Shown: positions 12,100-38,192 of the stretch, in pieces
Numbering within the stretch: the first letter of the stretch is position 1
Layout: every line of letters starts with the position of its first letter
From: a virus
Taxonomy: Duplodnaviria > Heunggongvirae > Uroviricota > Caudoviricetes
IMG/VR virus record: IMGVR_UViG_3300012286_000299
Coordinates: 109,277 to 173,276 of that record
DNA length: 64,000 nucleotides
Direction: 5' to 3' (one strand)
Notes under the pieces: model-generated
Told to the model about the DNA's origin: nothing
The model's input: only the letters and a program-made list of their open reading frames with translations
Databases searched by the model: none
Made by a program: the position numbers and the translations under genes

Positions 12100-12102
12100 T
12101 AA

Positions 12103-12492: not shown

Positions 12493-12501
12493 ATTAAAGT
12501 T

Positions 12502-16075: not shown

Positions 16076-16076
16076 T

Positions 16077-18214: not shown

Positions 18215-18299
18215 AAATCTAAGCCCTTAGGTTAAGTTTTATTTGGAGATTCAAGAAAAATTTATTATATTATATAATAAAAATTTAATTATAAAAGTT

Positions 18300-18602: not shown

Positions 18603-18888
18603 ATTAGAATCAAGAGGTGGTAGTATCATCTTAAAACAACTTGAAGAAAATGAAATGAAAGTTGGTAACATCATTATCCCTGATAATGGTCATGAAAAAT
18701 CACTTGTAGCTGAAATTATAGCAGTATCAGATGTATTTAATTGGCATAGAGGAGAATTTGTACCATCAGATCTAAAAATAGGTCAAAAAGTAGTAATCCC
18801 ACCAATGGGAGCACAAAAATTAACATTAGATAATGTAGATTATTTAATCATTTCACAAGAACAAATCCCAGCAATAATAGTAGATTAA
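18595..18888 (+). CDS. groS: co-chaperonin GroES (Cpn10)
   Basis: 97 aa with the GroES fold pattern: GGSIILKQ..EMKVGNIIIPD...EIIAVSD...GQKVVIPPMGAQKL..DNVDYLIISQEQIPAII. Directly upstream of groEL. Confidence 0.75.
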   Translation: MSKLESRGGSIILKQLEENEMKVGNIIIPDNGHEKSLVAEIIAVSDVFNWHRGEFVPSDLKIGQKVVIPPMGAQKLTLDNVDYLIISQEQIPAIIVD

Positions 18889-18890
18889 TT

Positions 18891-23425: not shown

Positions 23426-23614
23426 ATGTCACAAAATCAACAATTAACAAGTGTGAAGGTAGACAAAGATATCTTTGAAGCTTTCAAAATTGAGACTATT
23501 AAAACTAAGTTCTCATTACAAAAATTAGCAGATAGGTGTATGCATCTATACTTAACAGACCCTGAATTTCAAAAAATGGTTCACGATCATATGAATTTGG
23601 AATTAGAAAAATAA
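23426..23614 (+). CDS. hypothetical small protein
   Basis: 62-aa ORF. Confidence 0.35.
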   Translation: MSQNQQLTSVKVDKDIFEAFKIETIKTKFSLQKLADRCMHLYLTDPEFQKMVHDHMNLELEK

Positions 23615-23619
23615 AATTT

Positions 23620-25044
23620 ATGAAAGAAGGTTATATACCAAAAGAACAAAGAAAAAAGATATTATTCATTTGTGATGATATCAGAATGCACTCGGGTGTA
23701 GCTACAATGGCTCGAGAAATAGTTTTAGGAACCTCTCACCATTATAACTGGGTAATAATTGGAGCAGCTATTGATCATCCTGAATCAGGACAAAGATTAG
23801 ACTTATCTGATGCTACTAACAAAGAAACTGGAAATGAGGATACAAATGTAATTATCTATCCTAGTAATGGATATGGAAGTGCTGATTTAATCAGATATAT
23901 GATAAAGAATGAAAAACCTGATGGGTTAATGTTCTTTACGGATCCAAGATATTATGACTGGTTATTTGCTATCGAAAATGAAGTAAGAAAACAAATACCA
24001 ATGATTTACTTAAACATTTGGGATGATTTACCTGCTCCACTTTATAATAGAGCATTCTATGAATCATGTGATGCTTTATTAGCTATCTCAAAACAAACCA
24101 AAAACATTAATGAAATGGTTTTAGGTAAAAAAGCAGATGGTAAAGTTATCTCTTATGTACCTCATGGTATTAATGAAAAAATGTTTTATCCTATAGAAGA
24201 TAAAACACAGTTACAAGAAACTAAGAAAAAATTATTTGGAGATAAAGAATTTGATTTTGTATTATTCTTTAATTCACGTAATATTAGGAGAAAATGTACT
24301 AGTGATTTATTAGCAGCTCATAAAATGTTTTTAGATTCTTTACCTAAAGAAAAAGCTGATAAAATTGCCTTAGTATTACATACACAAGTTGTAGATAATA
24401 ATGGTACTGATTTAGATGCTGTTAGAACTTTATTATTTGGTAAGAAATCAAACATATTCTTTTCAGATCAAAGAATTGATACTGCTGAGTTAAATAGAAT
24501 TTATAATATATCTGATGCTGTAGTATTACCTTCTTCAAATGAAGGATGGGGATTAGCAATAACTGAAGCTATGATGGCTGGTAAAATGATAATCGCTAAT
24601 GTAACTGGAGGTATGCAAGATCAAATGCGTTTTGAGGATGAAAATGGTAAATGGATTGAATTAACACCTGAATTTCCTTCTAATCATTTTGGTACTTATA
24701 AAAAATGTGGTAAGTGGGCTGTACCTGTATTCCCTAATAACATGTCATTAGTAGGTTCACCTATAACTCCTTATATTTGGGATGATAGATTAGATTTTAG
24801 AGACTTAGCAAATGCTATTAATCAGGTTTATGAATTATCTCCTGAAGAAAGAGTAGAAAATGGTAAAGCAGCTAGAGAATGGGTAACTTCTGATGAATCT
24901 GGTATGAGTGCTAGAATGATGTGCAATAATGTAATTAAAGATATTGATTTAACTTTAGAAACATTTAAACCTAAAAAATCATTTGATCTACTTTTAGTAG
25001 AAGATTTGGAACCTCTAGAATTAGTTCATAAATTAACGTATTAA
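23620..25044 (+). CDS. glycosyltransferase, GT-B fold (GT4-like)
   Basis: E-x7-E motif region LPSSNEGWGLAITEAMMAGKMII; 474 aa. Confidence 0.7.
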   Translation: MKEGYIPKEQRKKILFICDDIRMHSGVATMAREIVLGTSHHYNWVIIGAAIDHPESGQRLDLSDATNKETGNEDTNVIIYPSNGYGSADLIRYMIKNEKPDGLMFFTDPRYYDWLFAIENEVRKQIPMIYLNIWDDLPAPLYNRAFYESCDALLAISKQTKNINEMVLGKKADGKVISYVPHGINEKMFYPIEDKTQLQETKKKLFGDKEFDFVLFFNSRNIRRKCTSDLLAAHKMFLDSLPKEKADKIALVLHTQVVDNNGTDLDAVRTLLFGKKSNIFFSDQRIDTAELNRIYNISDAVVLPSSNEGWGLAITEAMMAGKMIIANVTGGMQDQMRFEDENGKWIELTPEFPSNHFGTYKKCGKWAVPVFPNNMSLVGSPITPYIWDDRLDFRDLANAINQVYELSPEERVENGKAAREWVTSDESGMSARMMCNNVIKDIDLTLETFKPKKSFDLLLVEDLEPLELVHKLTY

Positions 25045-25102
25045 TTAGATAAGATAAGTTTTCCATTGGGTACATATATTTATTATCATAAATACGTACC
25101 TA

Positions 25103-25774
25103 ATGGATTATCAAAGAATTTACAACCAATTAATAGAAAAAGCTCAAAGTAGAACCTTAGAAGGTTATATTGAAAAACATCATATTATCCCTAAATGTCT
25201 AGGAGGAAGTAATGATAAAGAAAATTTAGTAGAATTAACAGCAAGAGAACATTTTTTATGTCATATGTTACTTTGTGAGATTTATCCTAAAGAAAATAAA
25301 CTAAAACATGCCTTATTTTTAATGTCTATTGGTAAACAAAGGATTAAAGAAAAACATTATGTTGTTGGTTCTAGAGTTTATGAAAGGCTTAAAACTGAAT
25401 ATTCTCAATTTTTAACAGGTAAAAAACAATCACAAGAAACTAAAGATAAAAAGAGTAAAGCTATGTTAGGAATTTGGGAAGATAAAACCCAAGAAGAAAA
25501 ATCTAAGATAGGACAAAAAAGATGGGACACTAGAATCAAAAATGGGACTACTAATATTAAAAGTATTAATAGAAGTAAATCATTAAAGGGTAGAGAAATT
25601 ACATGGGACCGAGGAGTTAATAAAATCATTATTCAATATGATAAACAAAATAACTTTATTAAAGAATGGTCTAGTATATCAGAAGCTCAAAGGCAAATAG
25701 GAGGGGATATTAAAGGTGCTTTAGCAGGGAGGCAAAAAACTGCTGCAGGTTTTATTTGGAAATACAAAAACTAG
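25103..25774 (+). CDS. HNH homing-type endonuclease
   Basis: EKHHIIPKCLGGSNDKENLVELTAREHFLCH (HNH core) plus a C-terminal IENR/NUMOD-like region. Sits between two glycosyltransferase genes. Confidence 0.6.
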   Translation: MDYQRIYNQLIEKAQSRTLEGYIEKHHIIPKCLGGSNDKENLVELTAREHFLCHMLLCEIYPKENKLKHALFLMSIGKQRIKEKHYVVGSRVYERLKTEYSQFLTGKKQSQETKDKKSKAMLGIWEDKTQEEKSKIGQKRWDTRIKNGTTNIKSINRSKSLKGREITWDRGVNKIIIQYDKQNNFIKEWSSISEAQRQIGGDIKGALAGRQKTAAGFIWKYKN

Positions 25775-25797
25775 TTATTATATTAAAATAAAAAAAA

Positions 25798-27105
25798 ATG
25801 AAAAATACATTTGTGATATCATGTCCCATAGATTGTTATGCAGGGTATGGAGCACGTTCACGTGATTTAGTTAAAGCGTTAATTAATTTAGATAAATACG
25901 ATGTTAAAATAATGCCTCAACGTTGGGGAAATACACCTTGGAGTTTTATTGAAGATCATCAAGAAGAATGGGGATTTTTACAACCACATATTTTAACAGG
26001 TCAGTTAACTCAACAACCTGATATTTGGGCTCAAATAACAGTACCTAATGAATTTCAAGCTATTGGAAAATATAATATTGGAATAACAGCGGGTATCGAA
26101 ACTACTATTTGTGCTCCTCAATGGATTGAGGGTATGAATAGAATGAGTTTAAATTTAGTTTCATCAGAACATGCTAAAAAAGTATTTCAAGATTCTAAAT
26201 TTCAAAAACATGATGAAAGGACTAAACAAGTTGTTGGTGTAATAGAATTAACATCTCCTATTGAAGTATTATTTGAAGGAGTAGATATTGTTAAATACTT
26301 TGCATCTACATTAACTCCTACTTCCGAAATAAAGCAAGCCTTAGATAATGTAAAAGAAGAGTTTGCATTTTTATTTGTGGGTCATTGGCTTCAAGGTGAT
26401 TGGGGTCAAGATAGAAAAGATGTAGGAGGGTTAGTTAGAGTATTCTTAGAAGCCTTTAAAAATAAATCTAAAAAACCTGCTCTTATATTAAAAACAATGT
26501 CAGGTCCAACTAGTATTATAGATAGAGATAATATCTTGAAAAAAATAGACGTTATAAGACAATCTATGCCTACTAAAAACTTACCTAATATTTACTTATT
26601 TCATGGTGAAATATCAGACGATGAAATGAATCAATTATATAACCATTCTAAAGTAAAAGCAATGGTTAGTTTTACTAAAGGAGAAGGATTTGGTAGACCT
26701 TTACTTGAATTTACTCAAACTAAAAAACCAGTTATTGCTTCAAATTGGAGTGGACAATTGGATTTCTTAAACCCTGAATTTACTTCATTAATACCTGGTA
26801 CTTTAACTAATATTCATCCATCTGCTCAAGTTAAGGATATGTTAATTGATGGTTCACAGTGGTTTACAGTAGATTATGGATTTGCTGGTGGTATATTAAG
26901 AGATTATTTTGAAAATTATAAAAAATATCAAGATAATGGTAAACGTTTAGCACATTATTGTAAAACTAATTTCTCATTTGAGAAAATGCAAGAAAAATTA
27001 GATACTATATTAACTGCTAATATACCTGAGTTTCCAAAGCAAGTGCAATTGAAATTACCTCAATTAAAAAAGGTTGAGTTACCTAAATTAAAAAAAGTAG
27101 AATAA
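25798..27105 (+). CDS. glycosyltransferase, GT-B fold (putative)
   Basis: FTKGEGFGRPLLEFTQTKKPVIASNWSGQLDFL resembles the GT4 E-x7-E donor-binding block; 435 aa. Confidence 0.5.
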   Translation: MKNTFVISCPIDCYAGYGARSRDLVKALINLDKYDVKIMPQRWGNTPWSFIEDHQEEWGFLQPHILTGQLTQQPDIWAQITVPNEFQAIGKYNIGITAGIETTICAPQWIEGMNRMSLNLVSSEHAKKVFQDSKFQKHDERTKQVVGVIELTSPIEVLFEGVDIVKYFASTLTPTSEIKQALDNVKEEFAFLFVGHWLQGDWGQDRKDVGGLVRVFLEAFKNKSKKPALILKTMSGPTSIIDRDNILKKIDVIRQSMPTKNLPNIYLFHGEISDDEMNQLYNHSKVKAMVSFTKGEGFGRPLLEFTQTKKPVIASNWSGQLDFLNPEFTSLIPGTLTNIHPSAQVKDMLIDGSQWFTVDYGFAGGILRDYFENYKKYQDNGKRLAHYCKTNFSFEKMQEKLDTILTANIPEFPKQVQLKLPQLKKVELPKLKKVE

Positions 27106-27106
27106 A

Positions 27107-27559
27107 ATGAAAGATAAATTATCTATATGCCCACGTTGCGGGAGTGATGCTTGTTATGTCACTCCTGTAAATGAAGTAAAAAACAACTATTTCTGTTTTG
27201 GATGTGGTTTTCAAACAAATGACCTAATGAAAGAAGGTGAATTTGATTTTGAAACATATGAAGAACCATTACCTGAACTATATAAAGATCTTAAAAACAC
27301 TGATTCAGAAAAACGTGTTTGGTATCCAATTACTATTAATATTCAGGATAAAGGAACGGTATTTGCCAATGGAAAAACCAAAGATAATTGGACATGGGCA
27401 GGAGTAAAGGCCGTTGAAGTAAGCGAAGAAGAAAAAGGTAAATTTAAAATACCTGGTACTGAAGATTACTATACTCATAAAACTGATATTAAATCTTTAA
27501 AGAATTATCCACAAGATGATTTTATTGAAGCCCTAGATTATATAGGTTTTTATAATTAA
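27107..27559 (+). CDS. zinc-ribbon protein
   Basis: CPRCGSDACYV...CFGCGF at the N-terminus. Confidence 0.4.
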   Translation: MKDKLSICPRCGSDACYVTPVNEVKNNYFCFGCGFQTNDLMKEGEFDFETYEEPLPELYKDLKNTDSEKRVWYPITINIQDKGTVFANGKTKDNWTWAGVKAVEVSEEEKGKFKIPGTEDYYTHKTDIKSLKNYPQDDFIEALDYIGFYN

Positions 27560-27562
27560 TAT

Positions 27563-28180
27563 ATGAGAATAAGTTATGCAATTCCTGTTTGTAATGAACA
27601 TGAAGAATTAATGAGATTACTAAGCATCCTCATCACCAATAAAAGAGATGAGGATGAAATAGTAGTTCAATGTGATCAGGGTAATACTACACCTGAAGTA
27701 TATAAAGTATTAGACCAATTTTTTGGTAGAATAAGTGTTATAGAATTTCCATTAAAAGGTAATTTTGCGGCTTTTAAAAATAATTTAAAGAAGCATTGTA
27801 CTGGAGAATGGATTTTTCAAATTGATGCTGATGAATACGTAACTATTGAATTTTTACAAAGTTTACATTTAATTTTACAAGATAATCCTACAACAGAAGT
27901 ATTTTTGCTTCCTAGAATTAATACTGTAGAAGGATTAACTCAAGAGCATATTAATAAATGGAGATGGAATGTAAATGAGAAAGGATGGGTTAACTTCCCA
28001 GATTTACAACCTCGTATACTTCAAAATTCACCTAAAATTAATTGGGGTAATAAAGTACATGAAGTACTAATGGGTCATAGTACATGGTCTACTTTACCAT
28101 TAGAAGATGATTATTGTCTGTATCATCCAAAACATATTGAAAGACAAGAACGACAAAATAATTTATACGATTTATTATGA
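27563..28180 (+). CDS. glycosyltransferase family 2-like (putative)
   Basis: N-terminal ISYAIPVCNEHEEL resembles the GT2 ...IPxYNE... start, with EIVVQCDQGNTT at the DxD-like position. Confidence 0.4.
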   Translation: MRISYAIPVCNEHEELMRLLSILITNKRDEDEIVVQCDQGNTTPEVYKVLDQFFGRISVIEFPLKGNFAAFKNNLKKHCTGEWIFQIDADEYVTIEFLQSLHLILQDNPTTEVFLLPRINTVEGLTQEHINKWRWNVNEKGWVNFPDLQPRILQNSPKINWGNKVHEVLMGHSTWSTLPLEDDYCLYHPKHIERQERQNNLYDLL

Positions 28181-29529
28181 TAAAATTTATAATATTTGAT
28201 TTAGATGGTGTTTTAGTAGAAGCCAAAAATATTCATTTTGAAGCTTTAAATGAAGCTTTAGGAAAAAAATATGAAATATCTTGGAATGAACATTTAAGTA
28301 AATATGATGGTTTAAAAACAAATCAAAAACTTGAAATGTTAACTCAAGATAAAGGGTTACCTGTTGCATTATATAAACAAGTTTGGGATGAAAAACAACG
28401 ATTAACTTTACATAAGTTAAAAAACTTACAACCTGATACTCAATTAATGGTTTGTATGGATTCATTAGTACAACAAGGTTATAAATTAGCAGTATGTTCA
28501 AATAGTATACGTAAAACTGTATTAACAGTGTTATCTAAATTAAATATAATTGAAAATTTTGATTTAATATTATCTAATGAAGACGTAAAGAATAGTAAAC
28601 CTCATCCTGAGATTTATTGGAAAGCCATATCACAAATGGGTTTTTTACCTGAGGAAACACTTATTGTTGAGGATTCACCTTATGGTTTACTAGCCGCAAG
28701 CAGGAGTAAAGCTTCTGTAATGAGAGTTGGATCCCCAAAAGATATTTCGTATAATAACATTTATAAATACTTAAACCAAGAAAAAATGAATTTAACACCT
28801 AAATGGAAAGATGACAAATTAAATGTTTTAATTCCTATGGCTGGAGCTGGTTCACGTTTTGAACAAGCAGGTTATACTTTTCCTAAACCTCTAATAGAAG
28901 TAAAAGGTAAACCAATGATCCAAGTTGTAGTTGAAAACTTAAACTTAGAAGCAAATTATATTTATGTAGTACAAAAAGCTCATAGACAAAAATATAACTT
29001 AGATACATTATTAAATCTAATTACACCAGGATGTAAAATTGTAGAGACTGATGGGTTAACTGAAGGAGCAGCATGTACTGCTTTATTAGCTAAAGAATTT
29101 ATAGACAACAATGCTCCATTGTTTTTTGCTAATTCAGATCAATTTGTAGAATGGGACTCAAATGAATTTATGTATAAAATGAATGAAACTAACGCTGATG
29201 GTGGTATTGTTTCATTTACTGCTACTCACCCTAAATGGTCATTTGCTAAAGTTGATGAAAACGGATTAGTAACTAAAGTTGCTGAGAAAAATCCTATTTC
29301 AGATATAGCAACTGTAGGATATTACTACTGGAAACATGGTTCAGATTTTGTTAAATATGCTGAGCAAATGATTGAAAAAAATATAAGAGTAAATAATGAA
29401 TTCTATGTATGTCCTGTATTTAATCAAGCAATTGAAGATTGTAAACAAATCCGAACTTTTAACACTAATGGAATGTGGGGTCTTGGAACACCTGAAGATT
29501 TAAATTATTATTTAGAACATTATGTATAA
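28177..29529 (+). CDS. bifunctional HAD-superfamily hydrolase / sugar- or alcohol-phosphate nucleotidyltransferase
   Basis: N-terminal HAD motifs FIIFDLDGVL (I), SKPHPEIY (III, Lys) and VEDSPYGLLAA (IV). C-terminal nucleotidyltransferase P-loop LIPMAGAGSRF (G-x-G-[ST]-R), compare LicC/RmlA/HddC-type. Confidence 0.6.
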   Translation: MIKFIIFDLDGVLVEAKNIHFEALNEALGKKYEISWNEHLSKYDGLKTNQKLEMLTQDKGLPVALYKQVWDEKQRLTLHKLKNLQPDTQLMVCMDSLVQQGYKLAVCSNSIRKTVLTVLSKLNIIENFDLILSNEDVKNSKPHPEIYWKAISQMGFLPEETLIVEDSPYGLLAASRSKASVMRVGSPKDISYNNIYKYLNQEKMNLTPKWKDDKLNVLIPMAGAGSRFEQAGYTFPKPLIEVKGKPMIQVVVENLNLEANYIYVVQKAHRQKYNLDTLLNLITPGCKIVETDGLTEGAACTALLAKEFIDNNAPLFFANSDQFVEWDSNEFMYKMNETNADGGIVSFTATHPKWSFAKVDENGLVTKVAEKNPISDIATVGYYYWKHGSDFVKYAEQMIEKNIRVNNEFYVCPVFNQAIEDCKQIRTFNTNGMWGLGTPEDLNYYLEHYV

Positions 29530-30322
29530 ATTACATATAGTAATACCTATTGGAGTAAGTTCACCTGGGACTCCAGTACCTGAATTTTTATTAAATGGTA
29601 TAGAAAGTTTAAAAGAACAAACATTAGATGATATTCTAATTACAGTAGCAGCTGACGAAAATATATCAGATGAATGTAAACAAGTATTAAAAGATACAGG
29701 TGTAAATGTTGAATGGTTTCCTGAGTATTCTTATTTTACTAAAGAAGGAATTTGGGGTAAAATATTTAAATGTTGGGAAAATTATGATTCACAATATGTT
29801 TCATTTCTTCATTATGATGATCTTTGGGAAAGTAATAAAGCTTTAAATCAAATTAATTTTATTGAAAAAAACAATTTAGATGGTTGTTGGTCCCAAGTAT
29901 ATCTTATAAATGATAATAATGAAATTACTAGTGGAGATAGTATGCAAATTAGTAAATTATCTGCTAATTCTGTAGGATATTTAATTCCATGGATGTGTCA
30001 TTCTACTATTATAAAAAAAGATACCATATTAAACTGTGGAATATTAGAATATAGAGAAAAATGGAATTGTGATTTTGAATGGTTATATACTGTATTTTTA
30101 CATAAAATTAAAAACCTAATGAAATGTGAGGATGCTATATTTTTATGGAGACAACATGAAAGTCAAGTATCACACGCTCAAGGGATTAATATGAAAGAAG
30201 ATAATAATCATGTTAAAGAACAAAGAGAACTTGTAGGTTATTCGTTTGATGAAACCATGGAAGATTCTCGTTATGTGATGGAAAATATAAATTTAGAGGA
30301 GATTAAAAAACTATACAAATAA
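29522..30322 (+). CDS. hypothetical protein (possible glycosyltransferase)
   Basis: 266 aa with a HIVIPIGVSS...TLDDILITVAADEN N-terminus within the glycosylation island. Confidence 0.3.
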   Translation: MYKLHIVIPIGVSSPGTPVPEFLLNGIESLKEQTLDDILITVAADENISDECKQVLKDTGVNVEWFPEYSYFTKEGIWGKIFKCWENYDSQYVSFLHYDDLWESNKALNQINFIEKNNLDGCWSQVYLINDNNEITSGDSMQISKLSANSVGYLIPWMCHSTIIKKDTILNCGILEYREKWNCDFEWLYTVFLHKIKNLMKCEDAIFLWRQHESQVSHAQGINMKEDNNHVKEQRELVGYSFDETMEDSRYVMENINLEEIKKLYK

Positions 30323-30324
30323 AA

Positions 30325-31011
30325 ATGGAAAATTTAAATCAATATGTAAATATGCTTAATGAAGCATACAAAATGGGAACAAATAACCACCCAGAACACA
30401 ATTCAAATCCTAATTATTGGGGCTTACTTTTAAATAGTATTAAATCAAATCCTGAAAACTGGGATGGGAAAAAAGCACTTGATTTTGGGTGTGGTAAAGG
30501 AAGAAATGTAACTAATATGTTATCTTTAGCTAATTTTGAAAGAGTAGATGGTATAGATGTTAGTGAAGATAATGTTAGATACTGTAAAGAAATATACACT
30601 AATCAACCTTCTGACTTTTATAAAAATTCAGGGGAAGATTTATCTGATTTAAATGATAATGAATATGATTTTGTAATGAGTACTATTGTATTCCAACATA
30701 TTTGTGTACATGAATTAAGATATAAATTAAAAGAAGAAATATATAGAGTATTAAAACCTGGAGGAGAATTTTCATTCCAAATGGGATTTGGACCTATAGA
30801 TTGGAGTGGTAATACAAAACAGAGAACTTACTTTGAAAATGGGTATAACGCTGAAAATTCTAATGGAAGTAATGATGTTCGAGTATCAGACCCACAAGAT
30901 TTAGTTAATGATTTAAGTAAAATTGGTTTTAAAGATATTACTTATTCTGTTGAAGAGCCTTGGGAAGATGGAGGTCATCCTAATTGGATTTATGTAAAAT
31001 GTTTTAAATAA
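30325..31011 (+). CDS. SAM-dependent methyltransferase
   Basis: Motif I ALDFGCGKGRNV and post-I acidic RVDGIDVSE, with a Rossmann-fold MTase layout. Confidence 0.65.
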   Translation: MENLNQYVNMLNEAYKMGTNNHPEHNSNPNYWGLLLNSIKSNPENWDGKKALDFGCGKGRNVTNMLSLANFERVDGIDVSEDNVRYCKEIYTNQPSDFYKNSGEDLSDLNDNEYDFVMSTIVFQHICVHELRYKLKEEIYRVLKPGGEFSFQMGFGPIDWSGNTKQRTYFENGYNAENSNGSNDVRVSDPQDLVNDLSKIGFKDITYSVEEPWEDGGHPNWIYVKCFK

Positions 31012-31871
31012 TGAACACTTGTATATTTACAACTCATACCACTTTAAATTTAAAACATGCTGAATACAGTTTGAAGTCCCTATTGGGGCTTCAAAGTGTT
31101 GATGTGATATGGGATAATTTTATAATTTATAATACTCATGATCATGAATTGAGTAACTATGATTTAGTAAATTTAATTAAACAATTTGATGTTAAGAATT
31201 ATATTAAAAACCTTTTAATATTTCCTTATGATTCTGAAATAAATAAAAAAAATTTATTACAAGATATAAGAAATTGGTATGATATAGGATTATCATTAGA
31301 ATTACAAAACACACCAGGTAAAATGTTATGGTTAAAATCAGACTATTGTGTTTCTAATAATTTCAACCAAATATTCTTAGAACATAGTCTTAATAATTGT
31401 ATGTGGTCATTACCTACATTAGGGGCTAAACAAAAAATTAGTTATGACACTATATTAACTAAACTTAATTTACCTGAGTTTACTACATCAGATTTTGAAA
31501 CATATTATAGGGGAGGAGATAATCCTAATAATGAATTATCTAATGAAGAAATATCACCTAATGGAGAAATGGATTATCATCCATCTATAAATTATGTTTC
31601 TCATAATTACGTTCATGATTTTAACTTACATGTTATATCTAATGATACTTTAGAATTAGGTAGAGAATTAGCTTATCATCCTCAAGTATTCGATATGAAT
31701 TCAACATGGGGTGGTCCCCATAATTTATTTTATGGTTTGAAACAAAATGGAGTGTATTTTAGTGGTGAATATAGAGCTTATGGTATCCATATGTTTCATG
31801 AAATAATTTCTGAAAATAGGTTGGAAGACAGAGGAGATGATCGTAAATTACATATAGGAGAAAAATATTAA
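31011..31871 (+). CDS. hypothetical protein
   Basis: 286-aa ORF in the glycosylation island. Confidence 0.45.
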   Translation: MNTCIFTTHTTLNLKHAEYSLKSLLGLQSVDVIWDNFIIYNTHDHELSNYDLVNLIKQFDVKNYIKNLLIFPYDSEINKKNLLQDIRNWYDIGLSLELQNTPGKMLWLKSDYCVSNNFNQIFLEHSLNNCMWSLPTLGAKQKISYDTILTKLNLPEFTTSDFETYYRGGDNPNNELSNEEISPNGEMDYHPSINYVSHNYVHDFNLHVISNDTLELGRELAYHPQVFDMNSTWGGPHNLFYGLKQNGVYFSGEYRAYGIHMFHEIISENRLEDRGDDRKLHIGEKY

Positions 31872-31877
31872 AAAATT

Positions 31878-32312
31878 ATGATACTAATTTCACATAGAGG
31901 GAATACAAACGGGAAGTTTGAATCCTATGAAAATGAACCTAATTACATTGATAAAGCCATATCAGAAGGATATGATGTTGAAATTGATATTTGGTGTATT
32001 GAAGGTCTTTTATTATTAGGACATGATAAACCACAATACGGTATAACACAACATTGGTTAAATGAACGACATGATAAATTATGGATACATTGTAAAAATG
32101 TAGAAGCTGTAGAATGGTTTAACATGATTAAAGGGTTTAATTATTTTTGGCATGAAGAAGATACAGTAACATTGACATCACATGGATTTATTTGGGCTTA
32201 CCCAGGTAAACAACCTATAAAAAATTCAATAGCAGTATTACCTGAAAAATACAATGATAATTTAAATCAATGTATAGGAATATGCTCCGATTATTTAAAA
32301 AATTATAAATAA
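31878..32312 (+). CDS. glycerophosphodiester phosphodiesterase-like (GDPD) small protein
   Basis: ILISHRGN ... YDVEIDIW matches the GDPD HR(G) and E-x-D catalytic blocks, though the protein is only 144 aa. Confidence 0.4.
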   Translation: MILISHRGNTNGKFESYENEPNYIDKAISEGYDVEIDIWCIEGLLLLGHDKPQYGITQHWLNERHDKLWIHCKNVEAVEWFNMIKGFNYFWHEEDTVTLTSHGFIWAYPGKQPIKNSIAVLPEKYNDNLNQCIGICSDYLKNYK

Positions 32313-32908
32313 TGAAAAACAGAGTTATTTTAGGAGGACCTTTAAGAGGAAATATAAATAACTGGAATAAATTACAAGAATTATTCTCATTATTATCAGC
32401 TGAGGTATACGTGTCATCTTATACAAAATGGGAAAATGTTCCTTTTGAATATCATTATACTCAAACAAAACCCTTTTTAGATTTAACATGTTTTTCTCAA
32501 GGACAACATGTTCACAATGCTAGATATAAAGAACAATGGGAATCATTATATACTTGTTATTCTACCTTTTCTCCATCATTTTCAGAAGATGATATAATCT
32601 TTAAATTAAGAAATGATATATGTTTAGAATCTTCATTAAATATATTATTAGAACTCCAAATAAAAGATAATTACATACACGCTCCCAATACTGAATTTCA
32701 TATGAATTGTCCATTTGATGTGAATGTAGTATGTAATGACCAATTTTATATTTCTAAAAAACCAGTAGCTGATAAGATCTTTAATCTTCCTTATAATTTT
32801 GTATTTGATTCTAATAAAGATTTAGGTATAGAAGCTATTTTACGGGATTATATGTCACAACAAAATATCAATTTAGAAACATTTGAATTTAAATACTCCC
32901 GAGTATGA
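32312..32908 (+). CDS. hypothetical protein
   Basis: 198-aa ORF. Confidence 0.45.
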   Translation: MKNRVILGGPLRGNINNWNKLQELFSLLSAEVYVSSYTKWENVPFEYHYTQTKPFLDLTCFSQGQHVHNARYKEQWESLYTCYSTFSPSFSEDDIIFKLRNDICLESSLNILLELQIKDNYIHAPNTEFHMNCPFDVNVVCNDQFYISKKPVADKIFNLPYNFVFDSNKDLGIEAILRDYMSQQNINLETFEFKYSRV

Positions 32909-33618
32909 AGTTAGCAATTTGCATAAGTGGTCAACCTAGAAATTTTGAACAAGGTTATGAAAGTTTAAAAACTTATTTTTTAGACAAATATGATTGTGAT
33001 ATTTACTTTCATACTTGGAAAATTGATAGTTTTGAATCAACTAATTTTGGTTTTGGTAATCATCAATATAGTTTTGATAGAAATGATTATTATAGTTTAA
33101 ACTTTTTATATCAACCCAAAAATCACATTTTAGAAAATCCTATTATATTTGATAGTAGTGGTTATAAATGTCCAATTTGGAGACAACCACTAAATAATAC
33201 ATTAAGTATGTTTTATTCTATTTATAGATCTTTTCAATTAATTGAAGGGAATTATGATTATATTATAAGAACTAGATTTGATGTAAATTACTCTAAATTT
33301 AATTTGGAGTTTCCAGAAAAAGGTATTATATTACCAGAATGGAATACTGATATTAGAGTTAAATCTAGGGGTTATTATGATGTATTTGCTTTGGGTAAAC
33401 CCGAAGATATGAAAATATATTCACAAGTATTTTCAAATATTATATCTTATGTAACTAATGATGAAGATTTTCTTAACTTCTTAACAGGAGGTTGGCCTGG
33501 ACAAGACTCACCATTAAGAAATGAGTATTTATTAAAATGGCATTTATTAAAAAATAATATAAAAGTAAAAGAATTACCTACATTAGAAATAAAAGCTGAT
33601 GTTGGTTTAATAAGATAA
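32905..33618 (+). CDS. hypothetical protein
   Basis: 237-aa ORF. Confidence 0.45.
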   Translation: MKLAICISGQPRNFEQGYESLKTYFLDKYDCDIYFHTWKIDSFESTNFGFGNHQYSFDRNDYYSLNFLYQPKNHILENPIIFDSSGYKCPIWRQPLNNTLSMFYSIYRSFQLIEGNYDYIIRTRFDVNYSKFNLEFPEKGIILPEWNTDIRVKSRGYYDVFALGKPEDMKIYSQVFSNIISYVTNDEDFLNFLTGGWPGQDSPLRNEYLLKWHLLKNNIKVKELPTLEIKADVGLIR

Positions 33619-33619
33619 T

Positions 33620-34534
33620 ATGAAAGGAGTCATAACTATATTTGCATTACCCCAAGAATTAGAAGATTTATCTTTAACATTATATAACCTAAAAAGAAAT
33701 TCAGTTTATTTAGACCCACAAGACAAATATTCAGTAGACATAACATTATGTTTATCAGATGAATTAACAGATTGGAACAGTTCTATATTACCTAAAGATT
33801 ATATTGAACAACGAACTATTGAATTATGTAAAAAGTTTTTAGATTGGTGTGAATATGATTTAAATATTGAAAAAGGAGATAATATATTAGGATGTGTTTC
33901 TCAAAGACGATATAGTTTAAATAAACATCAAGATGCTGATTTTTTTATTTGGTTAGATTGTGATTTTATATTTAAAGATTCAACATTATCCTATATGGCT
34001 ACTGCATATCAAAATATAAAAGATATAGGAACTAATAATTTTATTCTAACCCCTCAATTTGTAAGACAATGGGACACTTCATGGGATGTATTAGTTAATG
34101 AAAAATTTATAAATCACCCTATATGTTACCACGAATCAGCAGATGTTTATATTGATACCCTTCCACAAAATGATGAAATACAAGTTAAACAAATCAATAA
34201 CATTAAATTTGCAGGTGGGTGGTTCACATTAATAACAGGTAAATTATTACAAGAAATAACTATCCCTGAATCTTTAGGCCATTATGGTTTAGAAGATAAT
34301 TTTGTTATTGAGTGTTCTAAAATACTACAACATAAAGGTGTAAATATATCTCAATTTATATTAGACGGACTTGTTATAGGTGAAAGTTATACTCATAGAC
34401 CAAATCAAACTATTAAAAATTTTATTACAAGTAAAAATAGAAAACAAGAATTTACTCAAATAGCACAAGATAATTTTCCAATTGAATTAAATAAATTTTA
34501 TGAAAGAAGTAACAGTAGTATTAACAGCCTGTAA
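33620..34534 (+). CDS. hypothetical protein
   Basis: 304-aa ORF. Confidence 0.45.
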   Translation: MKGVITIFALPQELEDLSLTLYNLKRNSVYLDPQDKYSVDITLCLSDELTDWNSSILPKDYIEQRTIELCKKFLDWCEYDLNIEKGDNILGCVSQRRYSLNKHQDADFFIWLDCDFIFKDSTLSYMATAYQNIKDIGTNNFILTPQFVRQWDTSWDVLVNEKFINHPICYHESADVYIDTLPQNDEIQVKQINNIKFAGGWFTLITGKLLQEITIPESLGHYGLEDNFVIECSKILQHKGVNISQFILDGLVIGESYTHRPNQTIKNFITSKNRKQEFTQIAQDNFPIELNKFYERSNSSINSL

Positions 34535-35189
34535 TAGGGCAGATTTATTAGAACGAACTTTAGATAGTTTTTTCGAAATGAACACTTATCCTCTTAAACG
34601 TTTTATTATCATTGATGATGGGATGAATTTTGGATGTAATGATTTTGTTAAAGATAAATATGATTTTCCTATTGAATTAATTTATAATGATCCTAAATTA
34701 TATCAAATTAAATCTATTGATTATGCCTATTCTTTAGTTGATACTGAATATATATTTCATATGGAAGAGGATTGGTTATTTCTTAAATCAGGTTTTATTG
34801 AAGATTCAATAGAAATATTAGAACAAGATCCTAACATAGTTCAAGTATGGTTAAGAGGTTTAGATGATAAAACTTTAAATCACCCTTATTCTCCTGATTT
34901 ATATTCTAGTGGTGATAAAAAATTAGTAATGAATTTACCTAATGGAGTATGGGGTGGAATTAGTTTTAACCCGGGATTAAATAGATTAAGTGATTGGAAA
35001 TCATTTGCTAATGGTTATGATGGATGTACTAGATTAACTCCTCCAGAAAACAGTGGTGGTGTAACACTTGAATGTGATATATCATATGAAAACATTCAAC
35101 GAGGTAAAATCACTATGAGATTTGTAGAATCATACATAGAACATATAGGATGGGATAGACATATAATACACGGAATAAATGGAGAATAA
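34500..35189 (+). CDS. glycosyltransferase family 2-like
   Basis: VTVVLTACNRADLLERTLDSF ... FIIIDDGMN (GT-A DxD region). Confidence 0.5.
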   Translation: MKEVTVVLTACNRADLLERTLDSFFEMNTYPLKRFIIIDDGMNFGCNDFVKDKYDFPIELIYNDPKLYQIKSIDYAYSLVDTEYIFHMEEDWLFLKSGFIEDSIEILEQDPNIVQVWLRGLDDKTLNHPYSPDLYSSGDKKLVMNLPNGVWGGISFNPGLNRLSDWKSFANGYDGCTRLTPPENSGGVTLECDISYENIQRGKITMRFVESYIEHIGWDRHIIHGINGE

Positions 35190-36384
35190 ATTTAATATAA
35201 GCAATATATCAGTTGTTGTACCAAGTTACAATAATTTAGAATACCTTAAATCTTTATATAAATCAGTTAGACAAGTTTCATCTGAAATTGAATTAATAAT
35301 GTTTAGTGATGGTTCAACTGATGGGACTAAAGAATGGTTAGAACAATTAAATGATTCTAATTCAATAATAAAATGTTATAATGAAAGAAAGGGACATACC
35401 TTATTATATGATGAAGGATTTTTATTAGCAACTAAAGAAATCATAGGTATATTACATGCTGATATGATTGTAAATAAGAATTTCTTTAATTCTATTATAA
35501 AACATATTGCTACTAATAATATAGTTTGTGGAACGTGTATAGAACCACCTTTACACCCACCTGGAGGAGAAAAACATATATTAGATCTTGGAATGTATCC
35601 TAATGAATTCAATGAGGATAAATTTAATAGTTTTTGTAATGATAAAGATGTAAATCAAATATCCGAAGGTATATTTGCTCCTTGGTTTTTACTTAAAGAT
35701 GATTATATATCAAAAATAGGTAAACATGATATTATATATGCTCCTTATGGATACGAAGATAGTGATCTATTTACTAGAATGGCTTTAGCTAATTTTAATT
35801 TTATACAAAGTAGAGATGCTTTTGTATATCATTTTACTCAAAGAGGTCATAAATGGACTAAAGGAGTAGGGATAGAAAATAATGATTATCAGTATCAAAT
35901 GGGTAAAACTCGAAAAGAATATATTAGAAAGTTTGGGAGTGATCCTAAATTTGATTTTAATCATAAACCTACCCCTTCACCTAAATATAATATTGCTTAT
36001 GTAGTTAAACATGCAAACATGCAAATAGTAGAAGTATTAGAACCTTGGTGTGATAGACTTTATATTGAAGACAGTATGCAAGTGATTACAGATTCTTATA
36101 GAGAAAAAGAACAACTAAATACCAAGTTTGATTTATCAAAAAGAGTTCTTACATTGGAGTATAATGATCCAAAAGGAGAGAATGACATCGTAGTAGAATT
36201 TGATGCAAAACAATTTACAAATGCCGATTTTGCTTTCTTACAAAGACTTCCTGAGATTATAAAAGATAATGGAGATATAGGTGAATTTGAATTTGATATA
36301 TTTAAAATAACTATCAATTCAATGACTGAATACCAAAATGATTTAATTTATTTTGATAAAAATAATATTTATATTAAAACATAA
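35179..36384 (+). CDS. glycosyltransferase family 2
   Basis: ISVVVPSYNNLEYL ... MFSDGSTDGT, the canonical GT2 N-terminus and DxD block. Confidence 0.6.
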   Translation: MENKFNISNISVVVPSYNNLEYLKSLYKSVRQVSSEIELIMFSDGSTDGTKEWLEQLNDSNSIIKCYNERKGHTLLYDEGFLLATKEIIGILHADMIVNKNFFNSIIKHIATNNIVCGTCIEPPLHPPGGEKHILDLGMYPNEFNEDKFNSFCNDKDVNQISEGIFAPWFLLKDDYISKIGKHDIIYAPYGYEDSDLFTRMALANFNFIQSRDAFVYHFTQRGHKWTKGVGIENNDYQYQMGKTRKEYIRKFGSDPKFDFNHKPTPSPKYNIAYVVKHANMQIVEVLEPWCDRLYIEDSMQVITDSYREKEQLNTKFDLSKRVLTLEYNDPKGENDIVVEFDAKQFTNADFAFLQRLPEIIKDNGDIGEFEFDIFKITINSMTEYQNDLIYFDKNNIYIKT

Positions 36385-37535: not shown

Positions 37536-38192
37536 ATGGGAACTAGAGGTAAAGCCCCTAAAATTTACTCTAAGGAAGATTTGTTACGTTCAATGAAGGT
37601 TACTAAGAGTATCAGAGCAGCTGCTCGATACTTAAACTGTTCATATCAACATATTAAACCTTATTTTAAATCATATCGAGTTGATGACAACGATCCCAAC
37701 TCGCCTACATTATTTGATGTTCATAAAAATCAATTAGGTAAAGGTATTCCTAAATTCCTAAAACATCATGGTAAAGACCCGGATTTACAGAAAATACTAA
37801 CAGGAGAGTTATACACTGAATCATTTAGTATAGACAAATTCAAACGTCGTTTAATTCAGGAAGCTATATTAGCTGAAGAATGTGTTTGTTGTGGATTTAA
37901 AGAACAACGTGTATCAGATTATAGAGTACCCTTATTAATTAATTTTAAAAATGGGAATAAACGAGATTGGAAACGAGAAAATTTAGAATTTCTTTGTTAT
38001 AACTGTTACTTCTTAACAATTGGAGATGTGTTTACTAAAAAACAAACACAGGATATTGAAGATTATAATGAGGGGTATAAAGCAAATCAGGTAACTTGGG
38101 AATTAGATGAATATGCTGAAGAGCATTTCCGTTCACTAGGGTTAATTGATACTCCAAATGAAGAAGATGACTTTGTTTCTTATAATAGATAA
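37536..38192 (+). CDS. putative HNH-like / zinc-finger nuclease or DNA-binding protein
   Basis: C-terminal CVCCGF...NFKNGNKRDW...LCYNCY (C-x2-C ... N ... C-x2-C, an HNH-like scaffold lacking the canonical His). Possible N-terminal HTH. Confidence 0.3.
   Translation: MGTRGKAPKIYSKEDLLRSMKVTKSIRAAARYLNCSYQHIKPYFKSYRVDDNDPNSPTLFDVHKNQLGKGIPKFLKHHGKDPDLQKILTGELYTESFSIDKFKRRLIQEAILAEECVCCGFKEQRVSDYRVPLLINFKNGNKRDWKRENLEFLCYNCYFLTIGDVFTKKQTQDIEDYNEGYKANQVTWELDEYAEEHFRSLGLIDTPNEEDDFVSYNR

Follow-up and report, generated by a model that had tools for sequence, protein, structure and literature searches.

Islands rich in glycosyltransferases (GTs) are already known from cyanophages and pelagiphages. 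Those combining GTs with sugar-nucleotide enzymes have been published (PMC7029224, PMC12801897) and are annotated in phages S-CAM9, S-PRM1 and immuto. The "LPS-like" islands of cyanomyophages and pelagimyophages (S-CAM9, S-PRM1, P-SSM2, S-SCSM2R, PMPs) belong to aquatic T4-like phages, carry many GT2- and GT4-type and NDP-sugar enzymes, lie in hypervariable regions and, in pelagimyophages, sit with tail-fibre genes (PMC7029224). Host-envelope remodelling is the usual interpretation for the GT islands of aquatic myophages. Chloroviruses encode soluble, cytoplasmic capsid-glycan machinery (B736L, A064R, A111/114R) with GTs and a methyltransferase, and their glycan has a conserved core and strain-variable outer sugars (PMC4691112; PMC7826918). 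B736L is a virus-encoded GT-B enzyme that has been discussed with capsid-glycan synthesis (PMC4691112). In mycobacteriophages, phage-encoded soluble GTs glycosylate the C-termini of capsid and tail-tube subunits (Freeman et al., 2023, as related in PMC12619734 and also cited in PMC12801897). These phages and their hosts are unrelated to the phage described here and are likened to it by description only. To our knowledge, the glycosylating mycobacteriophages carry a smaller number of GTs and lack both dedicated nucleotide-sugar synthesis and a core-plus-cassette layout.

Other relevant systems modify DNA or are bacterial. The DNA poly-arabinosylation clusters of the T4-like phages RB69/DLP3 carry, among nucleotide-metabolism genes, several GT4-like GT-B enzymes with a HAD phosphatase and an NTP-transferase that make the phage's own UDP-sugar, together with a dCTPase, nucleotide kinases and a ThyA homolog whose D169N substitution yields 5-hydroxy-dCMP (PMC13326640). 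Bacterial O-antigen and capsule serotype loci have a variable centre of GT and sugar-nucleotide genes between conserved flanks, within which recombination brings about the exchange. GmaR, the flagellin O-GlcNAc transferase of Listeria, moves GlcNAc onto flagellin (PMC9638930) and SunS is named a peptide S-glycosyltransferase in NCBIfam; both act directly on protein or peptide in the cytoplasm.

The 64-kb stretch of DNA analysed here (the window), from an uncultured aquatic phage, carries a sugar-handling gene block at 23620–36384 on the + strand that is not the first island of its type, contrary to the suggestion of a first-pass annotation that a lytic phage with an entire pathway would be something new. 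The same annotation had described a single contiguous island of about 13 kb and 20% of the window. The size (12.8 kb, 20%) and all the ORFs listed, with their coordinates and + strand, were recovered, but comparison with the loci of 80 relatives replaces the single island with a composite: a three-enzyme core common to a large phage lineage and a cassette swapped among relatives. Furthermore, the module starts at a conserved 62-aa ORF (23426–23614) rather than at 23620. The island ORFs are all on the + strand and packed tightly or overlapping:

23426–23614, +: 62-aa conserved protein, head of the module (homolog conservation)
23620–25044, +: core GT 1 (GT4-type, GT4-1), 474 aa (Pfam PF00534 Glycos_transf_1, 48.2 bits; phrog_2170)
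25103–25774, +: sporadic HNH/NUMOD1-like homing endonuclease (weak Pfam HNH and NUMOD1 matches)
25798–27105, +: core GT 2 (GT4-type, GT4-2), 435 aa (PF00534 Glycos_transf_1, 34.9 bits)
27107–27559, +: core protein with N-terminal four-Cys zinc ribbon and beta-rich domain of orphan fold
27563–28180, +: core GT2, 205 aa, catalytic domain only (Pfam PF00535 Glycos_transf_2, 44.5 bits)
28177–29529, +: fusion of HAD (beta-phosphoglucomutase-like) and sugar-1-phosphate nucleotidyltransferase, 450 aa (Pfam HAD_2, 1.4e-31; NTP_transferase, 7e-13)
29522–30322, +: cassette GT2 (PF00535 Glycos_transf_2, 31.5 bits against a cut-off of 23.3)
30325–31011, +: class-I SAM methyltransferase (Pfam Methyltransf_11, 3e-18; also Methyltransf_25)
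31011–31871, +: cassette protein, 286 aa
31878–32312, +: miniature GDPD-fold protein, 144 aa
32312–32908, +: cassette protein, 198 aa
32905–33618, +: cassette protein, phrog_13607 (1.7e-25) with weak DUF7796 match
33620–34534, +: cassette protein, 304 aa
34500–35189, +: cassette GT2, 229 aa (PF00535 Glycos_transf_2, 46.8 bits)
35179–36384, +: terminal GT2, 401 aa (PF00535 Glycos_transf_2, 68.3 bits)

Six GTs have profile support (two Glycos_transf_1 and four Glycos_transf_2, all above the Pfam gathering score). These comprise the "at least five" called earlier, to which the enzyme at 29522–30322 is added. The previous calls of a HAD/nucleotidyltransferase fusion and a SAM methyltransferase also agree with Pfam (HAD_2, NTP_transferase, Methyltransf_11/25). 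The "seven unknowns" do not stand, however: 29522 is a GT2 and 25103 a weak HNH/NUMOD1 match, and five ORFs are without a family (27107, 31011, 32312, 32905 and 33620). The GC content of the island (0.26–0.29) does not differ from that of its flanks, a search around it found no flanking repeats, and no island protein in the window contains a segment hydrophobic enough to count as transmembrane.

A homolog of the 62-aa protein directly precedes GT4-1 in 76 of the 80 related loci (median identity 59% in the distant clade; 45% to immuto gp89). Its only Pfam match, Omega_Repress, is sub-threshold (E 0.077), and by eye it is possibly a ribbon-helix-helix-type regulator. GT4-1 has an EX7E motif (EGWGLAITE) and is 60% identical to gp90 of Flavobacterium phage immuto, 40% to its counterpart in Microcystis phage Mel-JY01 and 27% to that of Rhodothermus phage RM378. 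Its family profile matched chlorovirus NY-2A B736L (3oy2) in the PDB over both domains (E 1.5e-12), a chain that beats every other by about five orders of magnitude. GT4-2 (EX7E motif EGFGRPLLE; median identity 58% in the distant clade, 47% to Mel-JY01) aligns with GT4-1, its distant paralog, at 29% identity over 141 aa; its profile also had B736L as best match (E 7e-5). Among solved structures B736L is the top homolog for each of the two core GT4s, a remote likeness of catalytic domains only. Chloroviruses are, however, eukaryotic giant viruses in which the acceptor and donor of B736L are not settled (PMC4691112), and the lineage of the window is not known to bear a capsid glycan.

The core GT2 (27563) belongs to a family with an invariant DAD motif. 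Its profile matched the glycosyltransferase domain of GmaR (22ao) with an E of 4.7e-13 over positions 3–202, followed by 6p61 and SunS (7msp). The GmaR domain aligns with the full-length enzyme and SunS with its N-terminal half, but the phage protein (205 aa) consists of the catalytic domain only and has no TPR or other domain for substrate recognition. The SunS family also tops its NCBIfam matches, yet its 26 bits fall far short of the 350-bit cut-off, and membership was rejected on this basis. We propose that 27563 is a GmaR/SunS-like candidate for an initiating protein glycosyltransferase.

Of those among the 80 IMG/VR loci that reach far enough, nearly all keep the core (23426–28180) in synteny, and it recurs in immuto (54–60% identity), in Mel-JY01 without the zinc-ribbon gene and, in part, in RM378. 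Median identity in the distant clade is 50–59% for the core, compared to 57% for GroEL, 38–41% for the DNA polymerase and 33% for the clamp. The core is thus conserved about as strongly as GroEL and more strongly than the polymerase, and looks host-independent and essential. A PD-(D/E)XK nuclease gene always comes before the module, and the polymerase and clamp-loader genes are upstream of it; the RM378 GT4 lies between a Pol I-like gene and ribonucleotide reductase. There are no virion genes in the window, and the neighbours of the island are replication and repair genes. Unlike the accessory islands of cyanomyophages and pelagimyophages, the island in the window has three lineage-core GTs fixed beside the replication module and varies only in its middle; the core GTs had no match in Kyanoviridae.

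Immuto has the same gene order as the window: DUF3310, PD-(D/E)XK nuclease, small ORF, GT, GT, small ORF, GT2, variable sugar cassette, terminal GT2 and HNH gene. The five conserved island proteins of the two phages are 60, 58, 47, 54 and 49% identical, and both genomes encode a long ThyA, QueD, QueE, FolE and MazG. The immuto cassette, however, is wholly unlike that of the window (two WecE-type aminotransferases, a methyltransferase, a mannosyltransferase, a "pilin glycosylation protein" and an epimerase). Its polymerase belongs to family A, whereas the window has a split family-B enzyme, and in the region equivalent to the window it carries DpdA, DpdN and QueF, all three of which the window lacks.

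The cassette (~28181–35977) changes in content even among close relatives. DNA homology breaks sharply at 28180–28202, with the stop codon of the core GT2 as the left breakpoint, and at ~35977, where homology with L003, L004 and L005 returns and continues to 36384. The leftmost gene (28177) is 95% identical in L028 and L030, though the nuclease flanking it there is only 63–66% identical. NCBIfam matches of this fusion (beta-PGM family, RmlA/GlmU-like models) are all below cut-off and its PDB matches are 4evw and beta-PGM 1lvh; its putative product is an activated NDP-sugar or NDP-phospho-alcohol. The protein is 59–60% identical to Kyanoviridae cyanophage proteins, and S-CAM9 and S-PRM1 share with the window the fusion (at that level), the mini-GDPD protein (45%) and the phrog_13607 family. 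The latter (32905) has three paralog-like matches inside the S-CAM9 and S-PRM1 islands; DUF7796 is sub-threshold for it but reaches 6e-12 in cassettes of relatives, and a PDB sequence search gave nothing meaningful.

The GT2 at 29522 has a homolog in L017 only, and the protein at 31011, which has no match in Pfam, PHROG or NCBIfam, in L017 and L030 only (85–87% identity). None of the 80 loci has a homolog of the GT2 at 34500, of the protein at 32312 (no family match) or of the methyltransferase at 30325, which probably O- or N-methylates sugars; methyltransferases are frequent in the cassettes of relatives. The protein at 33620 has no match in Pfam, PHROG, NCBIfam or the PDB, and its homologs (25–31% identity) lie just ahead of the terminal GT2 in L003 and L004 and at other cassette positions in L019 and L037. 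A DCD motif read by eye suggests that it is a candidate GT-A-like enzyme. The terminal GT2 (35179) is 45–49% identical to its counterparts in L003, L004, L005 and immuto (gp102), and its PDB matches are generic GT2 enzymes. It joins a variable catalytic domain to a conserved C-terminal domain of ~135 aa, within a C-terminal half with many invariant residues; this domain is the right anchor of the cassette.

The 182 cassette ORFs of 33 related loci form 89 families. Pathways for deoxy-, amino-, methyl- and nonulosonic sugars are represented, and the census includes GDP-mannose dehydratase, RmlC/RmlD-type, DegT aminotransferase and FkbM methyltransferase families; NeuB, a CMP-transferase and a glycerophosphotransferase (Glyphos_transf) come in addition from the L003 cassette. 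In variable centre, conserved flanks and enzyme families the cassettes behave like serotype cassettes. Transmembrane stretches are missing from 178 of the 182 ORFs and never exceed one per ORF, and flippase, polymerase, initiating phosphoglycosyltransferase and ABC permease are absent from their 25 most frequent Pfam families. The window, part of a lytic phage genome, likewise differs from O-antigen and capsule loci in having no initiating transferase, flippase (Wzx), polymerase (Wzy), ligase or ABC exporter.

We tentatively favour, at a probability of roughly 40%, a phage-encoded and wholly cytoplasmic protein glycosylation pathway with a conserved inner and a variable outer part, whose acceptor would most likely be a phage protein and probably a virion component. 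A protein target is favoured because the nearest solved relatives (GmaR and SunS) act on proteins, and a cytoplasmic pathway because glycan-export components are absent and all island proteins are soluble. The B736L matches of both GT4s, the host-independent and essential look of the core, the weak case for DNA as target and the serotype-like cassettes also count in favour of this reading. This supports the earlier leaning, based on a GT-A-rich set with a nucleotidyltransferase, toward protein or polymer glycosylation rather than T-even-type DNA glucosylation. The core (23426, GT4 23620, GT4 25798, zinc-ribbon 27107 and GT2 27563) would lay down a conserved inner glycan with host nucleotide sugars as donors. 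The GmaR/SunS-like GT2 is the candidate for attaching the first sugar to the protein, and the zinc-ribbon protein may serve as its substrate-recognition partner. The cassette (28181 to ~35977) would provide one lineage-specific activated donor via the HAD/nucleotidyltransferase fusion, as well as two to four more GT-A enzymes, the methyltransferase and the mini-GDPD enzyme to extend and decorate the glycan, which the terminal GT2 would complete. Gene content, core-plus-cassette layout, recombination breakpoints, protein solubility and nearest solved homologs come directly from the analysis, whereas we infer which acceptor is used, how the steps are ordered and which sugars are involved.

Several observations run against a protein target. 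The neighbours of the island are not structural genes; the GT genes of mycobacteriophages are not necessarily adjacent to structural genes either. The likeness to GmaR, SunS and B736L is one of catalytic domains only, at low identity, and 27563 lacks the TPR-type substrate-binding domain present in GmaR. The literature searched reports no glycoprotein data for immuto or its relatives.

Rather unlikely, though the strongest of the alternatives, is that the island remodels the host envelope. During infection its enzymes would act on lipid-linked glycans of the host or on those of its surface (LPS O-chain, capsule, glycoproteins), which might, for instance, block superinfection by competing phages. 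The cassette repertoire is that of bacterial O-antigen and capsule loci, the variable centre between conserved flanks recalls serotype loci, and the GDPD-fold and L003 Glyphos_transf enzymes fit phosphodiester-linked surface polymers. The missing membrane proteins are compatible with action on host lipid-linked intermediates, since the peripheral GT2 and GT4 enzymes that serve O-antigen pathways are soluble too. This is also the view taken for the pelagimyophage and cyanomyophage islands (PMC7029224, PMC12801897). However, the assembly and export components listed above are absent from the window and from the frequent Pfam families of the 182 cassette ORFs, and the three-GT core is kept in phages of hosts from different phyla, which have very different envelopes. 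Nor would one expect a lytic phage to conserve an accessory function for modifying its host at the level of GroEL.

Glycosylation of the phage DNA as an anti-restriction hypermodification, in the style of T-even phages, RB69/DLP3 arabinosylation or TET-linked GTs, is disfavoured and improbable. The module does lie among DNA-metabolism genes (PD-(D/E)XK nuclease, polymerase and clamp loader; also in RM378), the RB69/DLP3 clusters likewise unite GT4-like GT-B enzymes with a HAD phosphatase and an NTP-transferase (PMC13326640), and strong core conservation would suit essential DNA protection. Yet LC-UV-MS/MS of immuto DNA found only canonical dA, dC and dT, with fdPreQ1 in place of dG, and no glycosylated nucleoside was reported (PMC10516641), despite a core at 54–60% identity and a cassette. 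The first-pass annotation had linked an "atypical ThyA" and deazapurine genes to the island, but the ThyA active site is canonical, and immuto has the same long ThyA with the GT module. Relative to E. coli ThyA, the window protein keeps W80, Y94, L143, C146, H147, D169, N177 and the C-terminal HPxIKAP. By the criteria of PMC13326640 it is an ordinary dTMP synthase with insertions; the retained D169, N177 and L143 speak against both a hydroxymethylase and a 5-hydroxy-dCMP synthase. No TET/5mYOX, hydroxymethylase, DNA methyltransferase (C5-methyltransferase included), dCTPase or dNMP kinase was found in the 64-kb window, which also sets it apart from RB69/DLP3. The lineage already has another route of DNA modification in its 7-deazaguanine genes, and at least six GTs, mostly GT-A, point to a glycan larger than the DNA glycans described in the literature examined.

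Compatible-solute pathways usually pair a HAD phosphatase with a nucleotidyltransferase. Least probable is a free or lipid-bound small glycoconjugate in the infected cell (compatible solute, glycolipid or storage glycan), or a host cytoplasmic protein glycosylated for takeover, which this pairing, the solubility of all island enzymes and sub-threshold NCBIfam and PDB matches of GT4-1 (sucrose-phosphate synthase, trehalose synthase, MshA/BshA and glucosyl-diacylglycerol synthase among them) would fit, but those matches span only the shared C-terminal nucleotide-binding motif and fall far under the B736L score, and neither the at least six GTs nor the fast-turnover cassettes with nonulosonic, amino and methylated sugars are accounted for.

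The core itself is interrupted in the window by the ORF at 25103, whose weak matches hint at a homing-endonuclease-like insertion separating the two GT4 genes. Six of the 80 loci carry it at this position with 86–89% identity (L005, L021–L023, L026), and in the other loci the GT4 genes abut.

Fifteen plus-strand ORFs, named here by their start coordinates, run in an unbroken series across positions 23620–36384 of the window, and most of them overlap or sit a few bases apart. The architecture of this island and the classes of its enzymes are established by the analysis.

ORFs of the island, with Pfam matches (score in bits versus cut-off)
23620, + strand: GT4-type glycosyltransferase, GT4-1 (Glycos_transf_1, 48.2 versus 26.4)
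25103–25774, + strand: HNH/NUMOD1 homing-endonuclease-like ORF (weak matches)
25798, + strand: GT4-type glycosyltransferase, GT4-2 (Glycos_transf_1, 34.9 versus 26.4)
27107, + strand: Zn-ribbon protein, no family assigned by the searches run
27563, + strand: core GT2 glycosyltransferase (Glycos_transf_2, 44.5 versus 23.3)
28177, + strand: HAD_2 and NTP_transferase fusion (above the curated cut-off)
29522, + strand: GT2 glycosyltransferase (Glycos_transf_2, 31.5 versus 23.3)
30325, + strand: class-I SAM methyltransferase (above the curated cut-off)
31011, + strand: no family assigned by the searches run
31878, + strand: mini-GDPD, a small protein with the GDPD fold
32312, + strand: no family assigned by the searches run
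32905, + strand: no family assigned by the searches run
33620, + strand: no family assigned by the searches run
34500, + strand: GT2 glycosyltransferase (Glycos_transf_2, 46.8 versus 23.3)
35179, + strand: terminal GT2 glycosyltransferase (Glycos_transf_2, 68.3 versus 23.3)

The ORF block proposed by a first-pass annotation of the sequence is confirmed, and Pfam matches above the cut-offs bear out its glycosyltransferase, HAD/NTP-transferase and methyltransferase classes. The glycosyltransferases listed there all stand, but 29522 had been overlooked; the island therefore encodes six profile-supported glycosyltransferases. The annotation had also called 31878 GDPD-like, which holds for the fold and for the conserved His/Arg ... 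Glu-x-Asp ... His residues but not for the GDPD sequence profile (PF03009), to which the protein is unmatched even at E ≤ 10. The C-terminal domains of GT4-1 and GT4-2 carry readable EX7E motifs (EGWGLAITE and EGFGRPLLE, respectively), with both glutamates of each invariant in the family alignments, and the GT4-1 profile aligns to positions 9–326 of the GT-B structure 3oy2, that is, across both domains. The HAD domain of 28177 scores below the beta-phosphoglucomutase equivalog cut-offs (TIGR01990, 91.1 versus 189.4 bits; TIGR02009, 99 versus 153 bits), and searches of 32905 and 33620 against PDB sequences gave chance-level matches only. The GC content of the island is indistinct from that of its flanks, and searches for boundary repeats or att-like sites around it returned only short chance repeats. 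The T4 late-promoter motif TATAAATA shows no enrichment, with 17 occurrences versus ~22 expected, and gives no guide to expression timing.

A megablast search of 50,697 phage records with the island sequence gave no nucleotide-level match, so relatives had to be sought at the protein level. Searching IMG/VR with the upstream nuclease as query recovered 80 loci. In almost all of the loci that are long enough, the core (23426–28180) recurs in the order nuclease, 62-amino-acid ORF (23426), GT4-1, GT4-2, 27107 and GT2 27563. Across the 53 most distant loci, median identities are 59% for the 62-amino-acid ORF, 58% for GT4-2, 55% for GT4-1, 51% for the core GT2 and 50% for 27107, alongside 57% for GroEL, 46% for the clamp loader, 38–41% for the two parts of the DNA polymerase and 33% for the clamp. 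In this distant clade, GroEL and the core glycosyltransferases are conserved to about the same degree. Among cultured phages, the Flavobacterium phage immuto has an identical core gene order, and the Microcystis phage Mel-JY01, on which a literature search found nothing, encodes GT4-1, GT4-2 and the GT2 (34–52%, 47% and 41% identity) after the same nuclease. The Rhodothermus phage RM378 has GT4-1 at 27% identity and a GT2-like ORF at 30%. The Zn-ribbon protein 27107 has 1970 homolog clusters in metagenomes, and its model, predicted with high confidence (pLDDT 94.6), is an orphan fold for which no structural relative was found. The system is abundant.

The cassette of the window, which begins at 28181, has nothing in common with most relatives. 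The left breakpoint in DNA homology (28180–28202) coincides with the stop codon of 27563, and homology resumes at ~35977, within the terminal GT2. The C-terminal domain of this enzyme (35978–36384, ~135 amino acids) is more conserved than its catalytic domain and matched no family in Pfam or among PDB sequences. The HAD/nucleotidyltransferase fusion 28177 occurs in three loci. In two of them (L028 and L030) it is 95% identical to ours next to a nuclease of only 63–66% identity, and in the third (L017) the values are 89% and 75%. None of the 80 loci has a homolog of 30325, 32312 or 34500. In another relative (L069), only ~1.5 kb separates the core GT2 from the counterpart of the HNH-like ORF 37536, which lies downstream of the island. 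The HNH ORF 25103 is itself a sporadic insertion, with a presence that varies even among close relatives.

The 182 ORFs in the cassettes of 33 loci fall into 89 families. Their Pfam census includes NDP-sugar epimerases/dehydratases, GDP-mannose dehydratase, RmlC/RmlD-type enzymes, DegT aminotransferases, GT2 enzymes, three kinds of methyltransferase, transketolase, PfkB kinase and DUF7796. For example, one relative (L003, IMGVR_UViG_3300007734_000754, 1154–9148) carries at the cassette position a nonulosonic-acid biosynthesis set (PseB-like dehydratase, aminotransferase, CMP-transferase, oxidoreductase, NeuB and a GNAT acetyltransferase) plus a glycerophosphotransferase-like protein, and the immuto cassette is an aminosugar set. 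The mini-GDPD family of 31878 is very large and unusually conserved (3355 clusters in metagenomes, with 72–83% identity among the matches listed). One member lies on a 270-kb contig (L089, JGI 3300042460, 7261–8471) that also carries cyanophage-like genes (CpeT, ribosomal protein S21); a WavE-family protein immediately precedes it, and a NUDIX hydrolase follows. Neither 32905 nor 32312 is significantly similar to this WavE-family neighbor, and both were rejected as WavE candidates.

We assign a probability of about 0.4 to a cytoplasmic protein glycosylation pathway that the phage runs autonomously. In the scheme that we infer for its acceptor, order of steps and sugars, the core GT2 27563, perhaps aided by the orphan-fold protein 27107, would attach the first sugar, and GT4-1 and GT4-2 would extend a conserved inner glycan. 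The cassette (~28181–35977) would then add a lineage-specific outer part from its own activated donor (28177), using further GT-A enzymes (29522, 34500 and perhaps 33620), the methyltransferase 30325 and the mini-GDPD 31878, whose fold is suggestive of phosphodiester chemistry. Completion of the glycan would fall to the terminal GT2 35179.

The best solved homologs of the core enzymes are consistent with a protein acceptor. In searches against PDB sequences, the best match of the 27563 family profile is the GmaR glycosyltransferase domain (E 4.7e-13), to which the core GT2 aligns over its whole length (profile positions 3–202); 6p61 and then the peptide glycosyltransferase SunS (4.9e-8) come next. 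GmaR is the Listeria enzyme that places GlcNAc on flagellin (PMC9638930). SunS is also the best NCBIfam match of 27563, at a score far under the cut-off (TIGR04195, 26.4 versus 350 bits). With 205 amino acids, 27563 is a catalytic domain only and has no C-terminal TPR or other substrate-binding domain. The GT4-1 profile matches B736L of chlorovirus NY-2A over both domains (E 1.5e-12), at least 5 orders of magnitude better than any other chain, and B736L is likewise the best PDB match of GT4-2. This virus-encoded GT-B enzyme has been discussed in relation to capsid-glycan synthesis, its acceptor being unproven (PMC4691112). The similarities to GmaR, SunS and B736L are remote and lie in catalytic domains, and we take them as leads rather than as evidence of membership. 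As in the virus-run virion glycosylation of mycobacteriophages and chloroviruses, in which a methyltransferase may or may not take part, the glycosyltransferases are virus-encoded and soluble, and no export machinery accompanies them. A literature search found no virion data for this lineage.

Remodelling of the host envelope is an unlikely alternative to protein glycosylation, even though published work on pelagimyophage and cyanophage islands interprets them in this way (PMC7029224, PMC12801897) and the cassettes share their enzyme repertoire with O-antigen and capsule loci. The island does resemble a surface-polysaccharide locus in combining nucleotide-sugar synthesis genes with several GT2 and GT4 enzymes. 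However, none of its proteins has a transmembrane segment (highest 19-residue Kyte-Doolittle hydropathy, 1.38), and neither do 178 of the 182 cassette ORFs of relatives, none of which has more than one. Flippases, polymerases, initiating transferases and ABC permeases are absent from the 25 most frequent cassette Pfam families. The hydropathy profiles and this census thus provide none of the hallmarks of Wzx/Wzy- or ABC-type loci (initiating polyprenyl-phosphate transferase, flippase/polymerase or ABC exporter). The core is, moreover, common to phages whose hosts belong to different phyla.

Glycosylation of phage DNA is distinctly improbable. The positional argument for it is real because the module always lies among DNA-metabolism genes, and the arabinosylation clusters of RB69 and DLP3 likewise join GT4-like enzymes, a HAD phosphatase and an NTP-transferase (PMC13326640). 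Yet immuto, which has the same module, packages DNA of canonical dA, dC and dT with fdPreQ1 fully in place of dG and nothing else, as determined by LC-UV-MS/MS in an analysis that did not specifically seek low-stoichiometry adducts (PMC10516641). In addition, no TET, DNA methyltransferase or nucleotide kinase gene was detected in the window: Pfam scans of both island flanks found no TET/JBP or DNA methyltransferase, and no kinase for a modified dNMP was found in the 64 kb. The only candidate in the window for a dCTPase or dUTPase that would control the dNTP pool is a MazG-like pyrophosphohydrolase at 12502. The first-pass annotation had tied modified DNA to an atypical ThyA. The enzyme retains L143, C146, D169, N177 and the C-terminal HPxIKAP, and these canonical active-site residues rule it out as a hydroxymethylase or hydroxylase and undo the proposed link. 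By comparison, residue 169 is Asn in 5-hydroxy-dCMP synthases (D169N), and the choice of substrate and product depends on N177 and L143 (PMC13326640).

This ThyA homolog (6274–7509) is 411 amino acids long and, alongside three large insertions, keeps a fully canonical active site; immuto encodes the same long form (57% identity). QueD, QueE, FolE, a phosphoribosyltransferase and MazG cluster at 9406–13026, and the window has no DpdA, QueC, QueF or DpdN homologs. In contrast, immuto, whose DNA carries fdPreQ1, has DpdA, QueF and DpdN in the corresponding region and QueC upstream.

Synthesis of a small glycoconjugate, or glycosylation of a cytoplasmic host protein, is very improbable.

The island belongs to the glycosyltransferase and sugar-nucleotide islands already known from aquatic myophages; its gene content is ordinary for the habitat, and a counterpart lies in the deposited and annotated immuto genome. 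The earlier suggestion that it would be a novelty for a lytic phage to carry a complete pathway is incorrect. 'LPS modification' and 'DNA glucosylation' are the routine labels for such islands, given without testing. What appears to be new here is that three glycosyltransferases are core rather than accessory genes of the lineage and that turnover is confined to the middle of the island, a recombining cassette with defined junctions. Also seemingly new is that two lines of evidence, the best solved homologs and a relative's published DNA composition, both argue against DNA and against exported polysaccharide as the target. Because immuto can be grown in culture (on Flavobacterium sp. LMO8), carries this module and has a published DNA composition, the target of the glycan genes is directly testable. 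If that target is the virion, virus-autonomous protein glycosylation, so far known from chloroviruses, mimiviruses and mycobacteriophages, would extend to abundant environmental phages and imply selection on phage surface glycans in nature.

A more novel reading is possible, if doubtful. An abundant, global aquatic lineage, probably infecting Bacteroidota, would glycosylate its own virion proteins with an inner glycan made by three enzymes as conserved as GroEL. The recombining outer cassette would generate phage 'serotypes', similar to the conserved core and variable periphery of chlorovirus capsid glycans, and 27107 would be a new substrate-recognition partner of a minimal GmaR/SunS-like protein glycosyltransferase.

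The window lies in the early/replication region of a large phage that is distantly T4-like. It encodes a PARP-domain protein, the long ThyA, QueD, QueE, FolE, the phosphoribosyltransferase, MazG, a split family-B polymerase, clamp, clamp loader, Hsp20, GroES, GroEL and a PD-(D/E)XK nuclease, with thioredoxin, a CCA-adding-type enzyme, DNA ligase, an SPFH protein and DenV downstream of the island. Low GC had suggested a pelagimyophage, an identity that we rejected: no cultured phage has a polymerase more than 34% identical to this one, and among cultured phages the nearest relative infects Flavobacterium. A scan of the genomes of 185,579 species found four cellular homologs of GT4-1, all in metagenome-assembled genomes (MAGs), including an Algoriphagus MAG and a Bacteroidetes MAG. 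These matches have no informative cellular context and are probably binned phage fragments, which makes them a weak hint of the host. A Bacteroidota host would fit them and the 29% GC.

Several other features of the window stand out. In the polymerase region (13540–17012), the family-B polymerase is split into two ORFs (14085–15812 and 16077–17012) with an 87-amino-acid ORF between them and an HNH-type ORF just upstream, whereas the polymerase of immuto is of family A and immediately precedes GroES. Hsp20, GroES and GroEL are consecutive at 17807–20531. Four HNH-type endonuclease-like ORFs are scattered along the window (13540–14085, 25103–25774, 37536–38192 and 50911–51546). ARAGORN predicts a tRNA-like gene of undetermined anticodon at 55298–55367. 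The paralogous ORFs 4003–4953 and 5706–6194, which match no Pfam family, share near-identical N-terminal segments of ~55 residues and a second conserved segment (~residues 80–115). A perfect direct duplication with an 871-bp period (~59080–60700) yields two identical ORF pairs and may be either a genuine tandem duplication or an artefact of assembly. Finally, the 354-amino-acid protein encoded at 47–1111 has a C-terminal PARP catalytic domain (PF00644, E 1.9e-17) and may be an ADP-ribosyltransferase.
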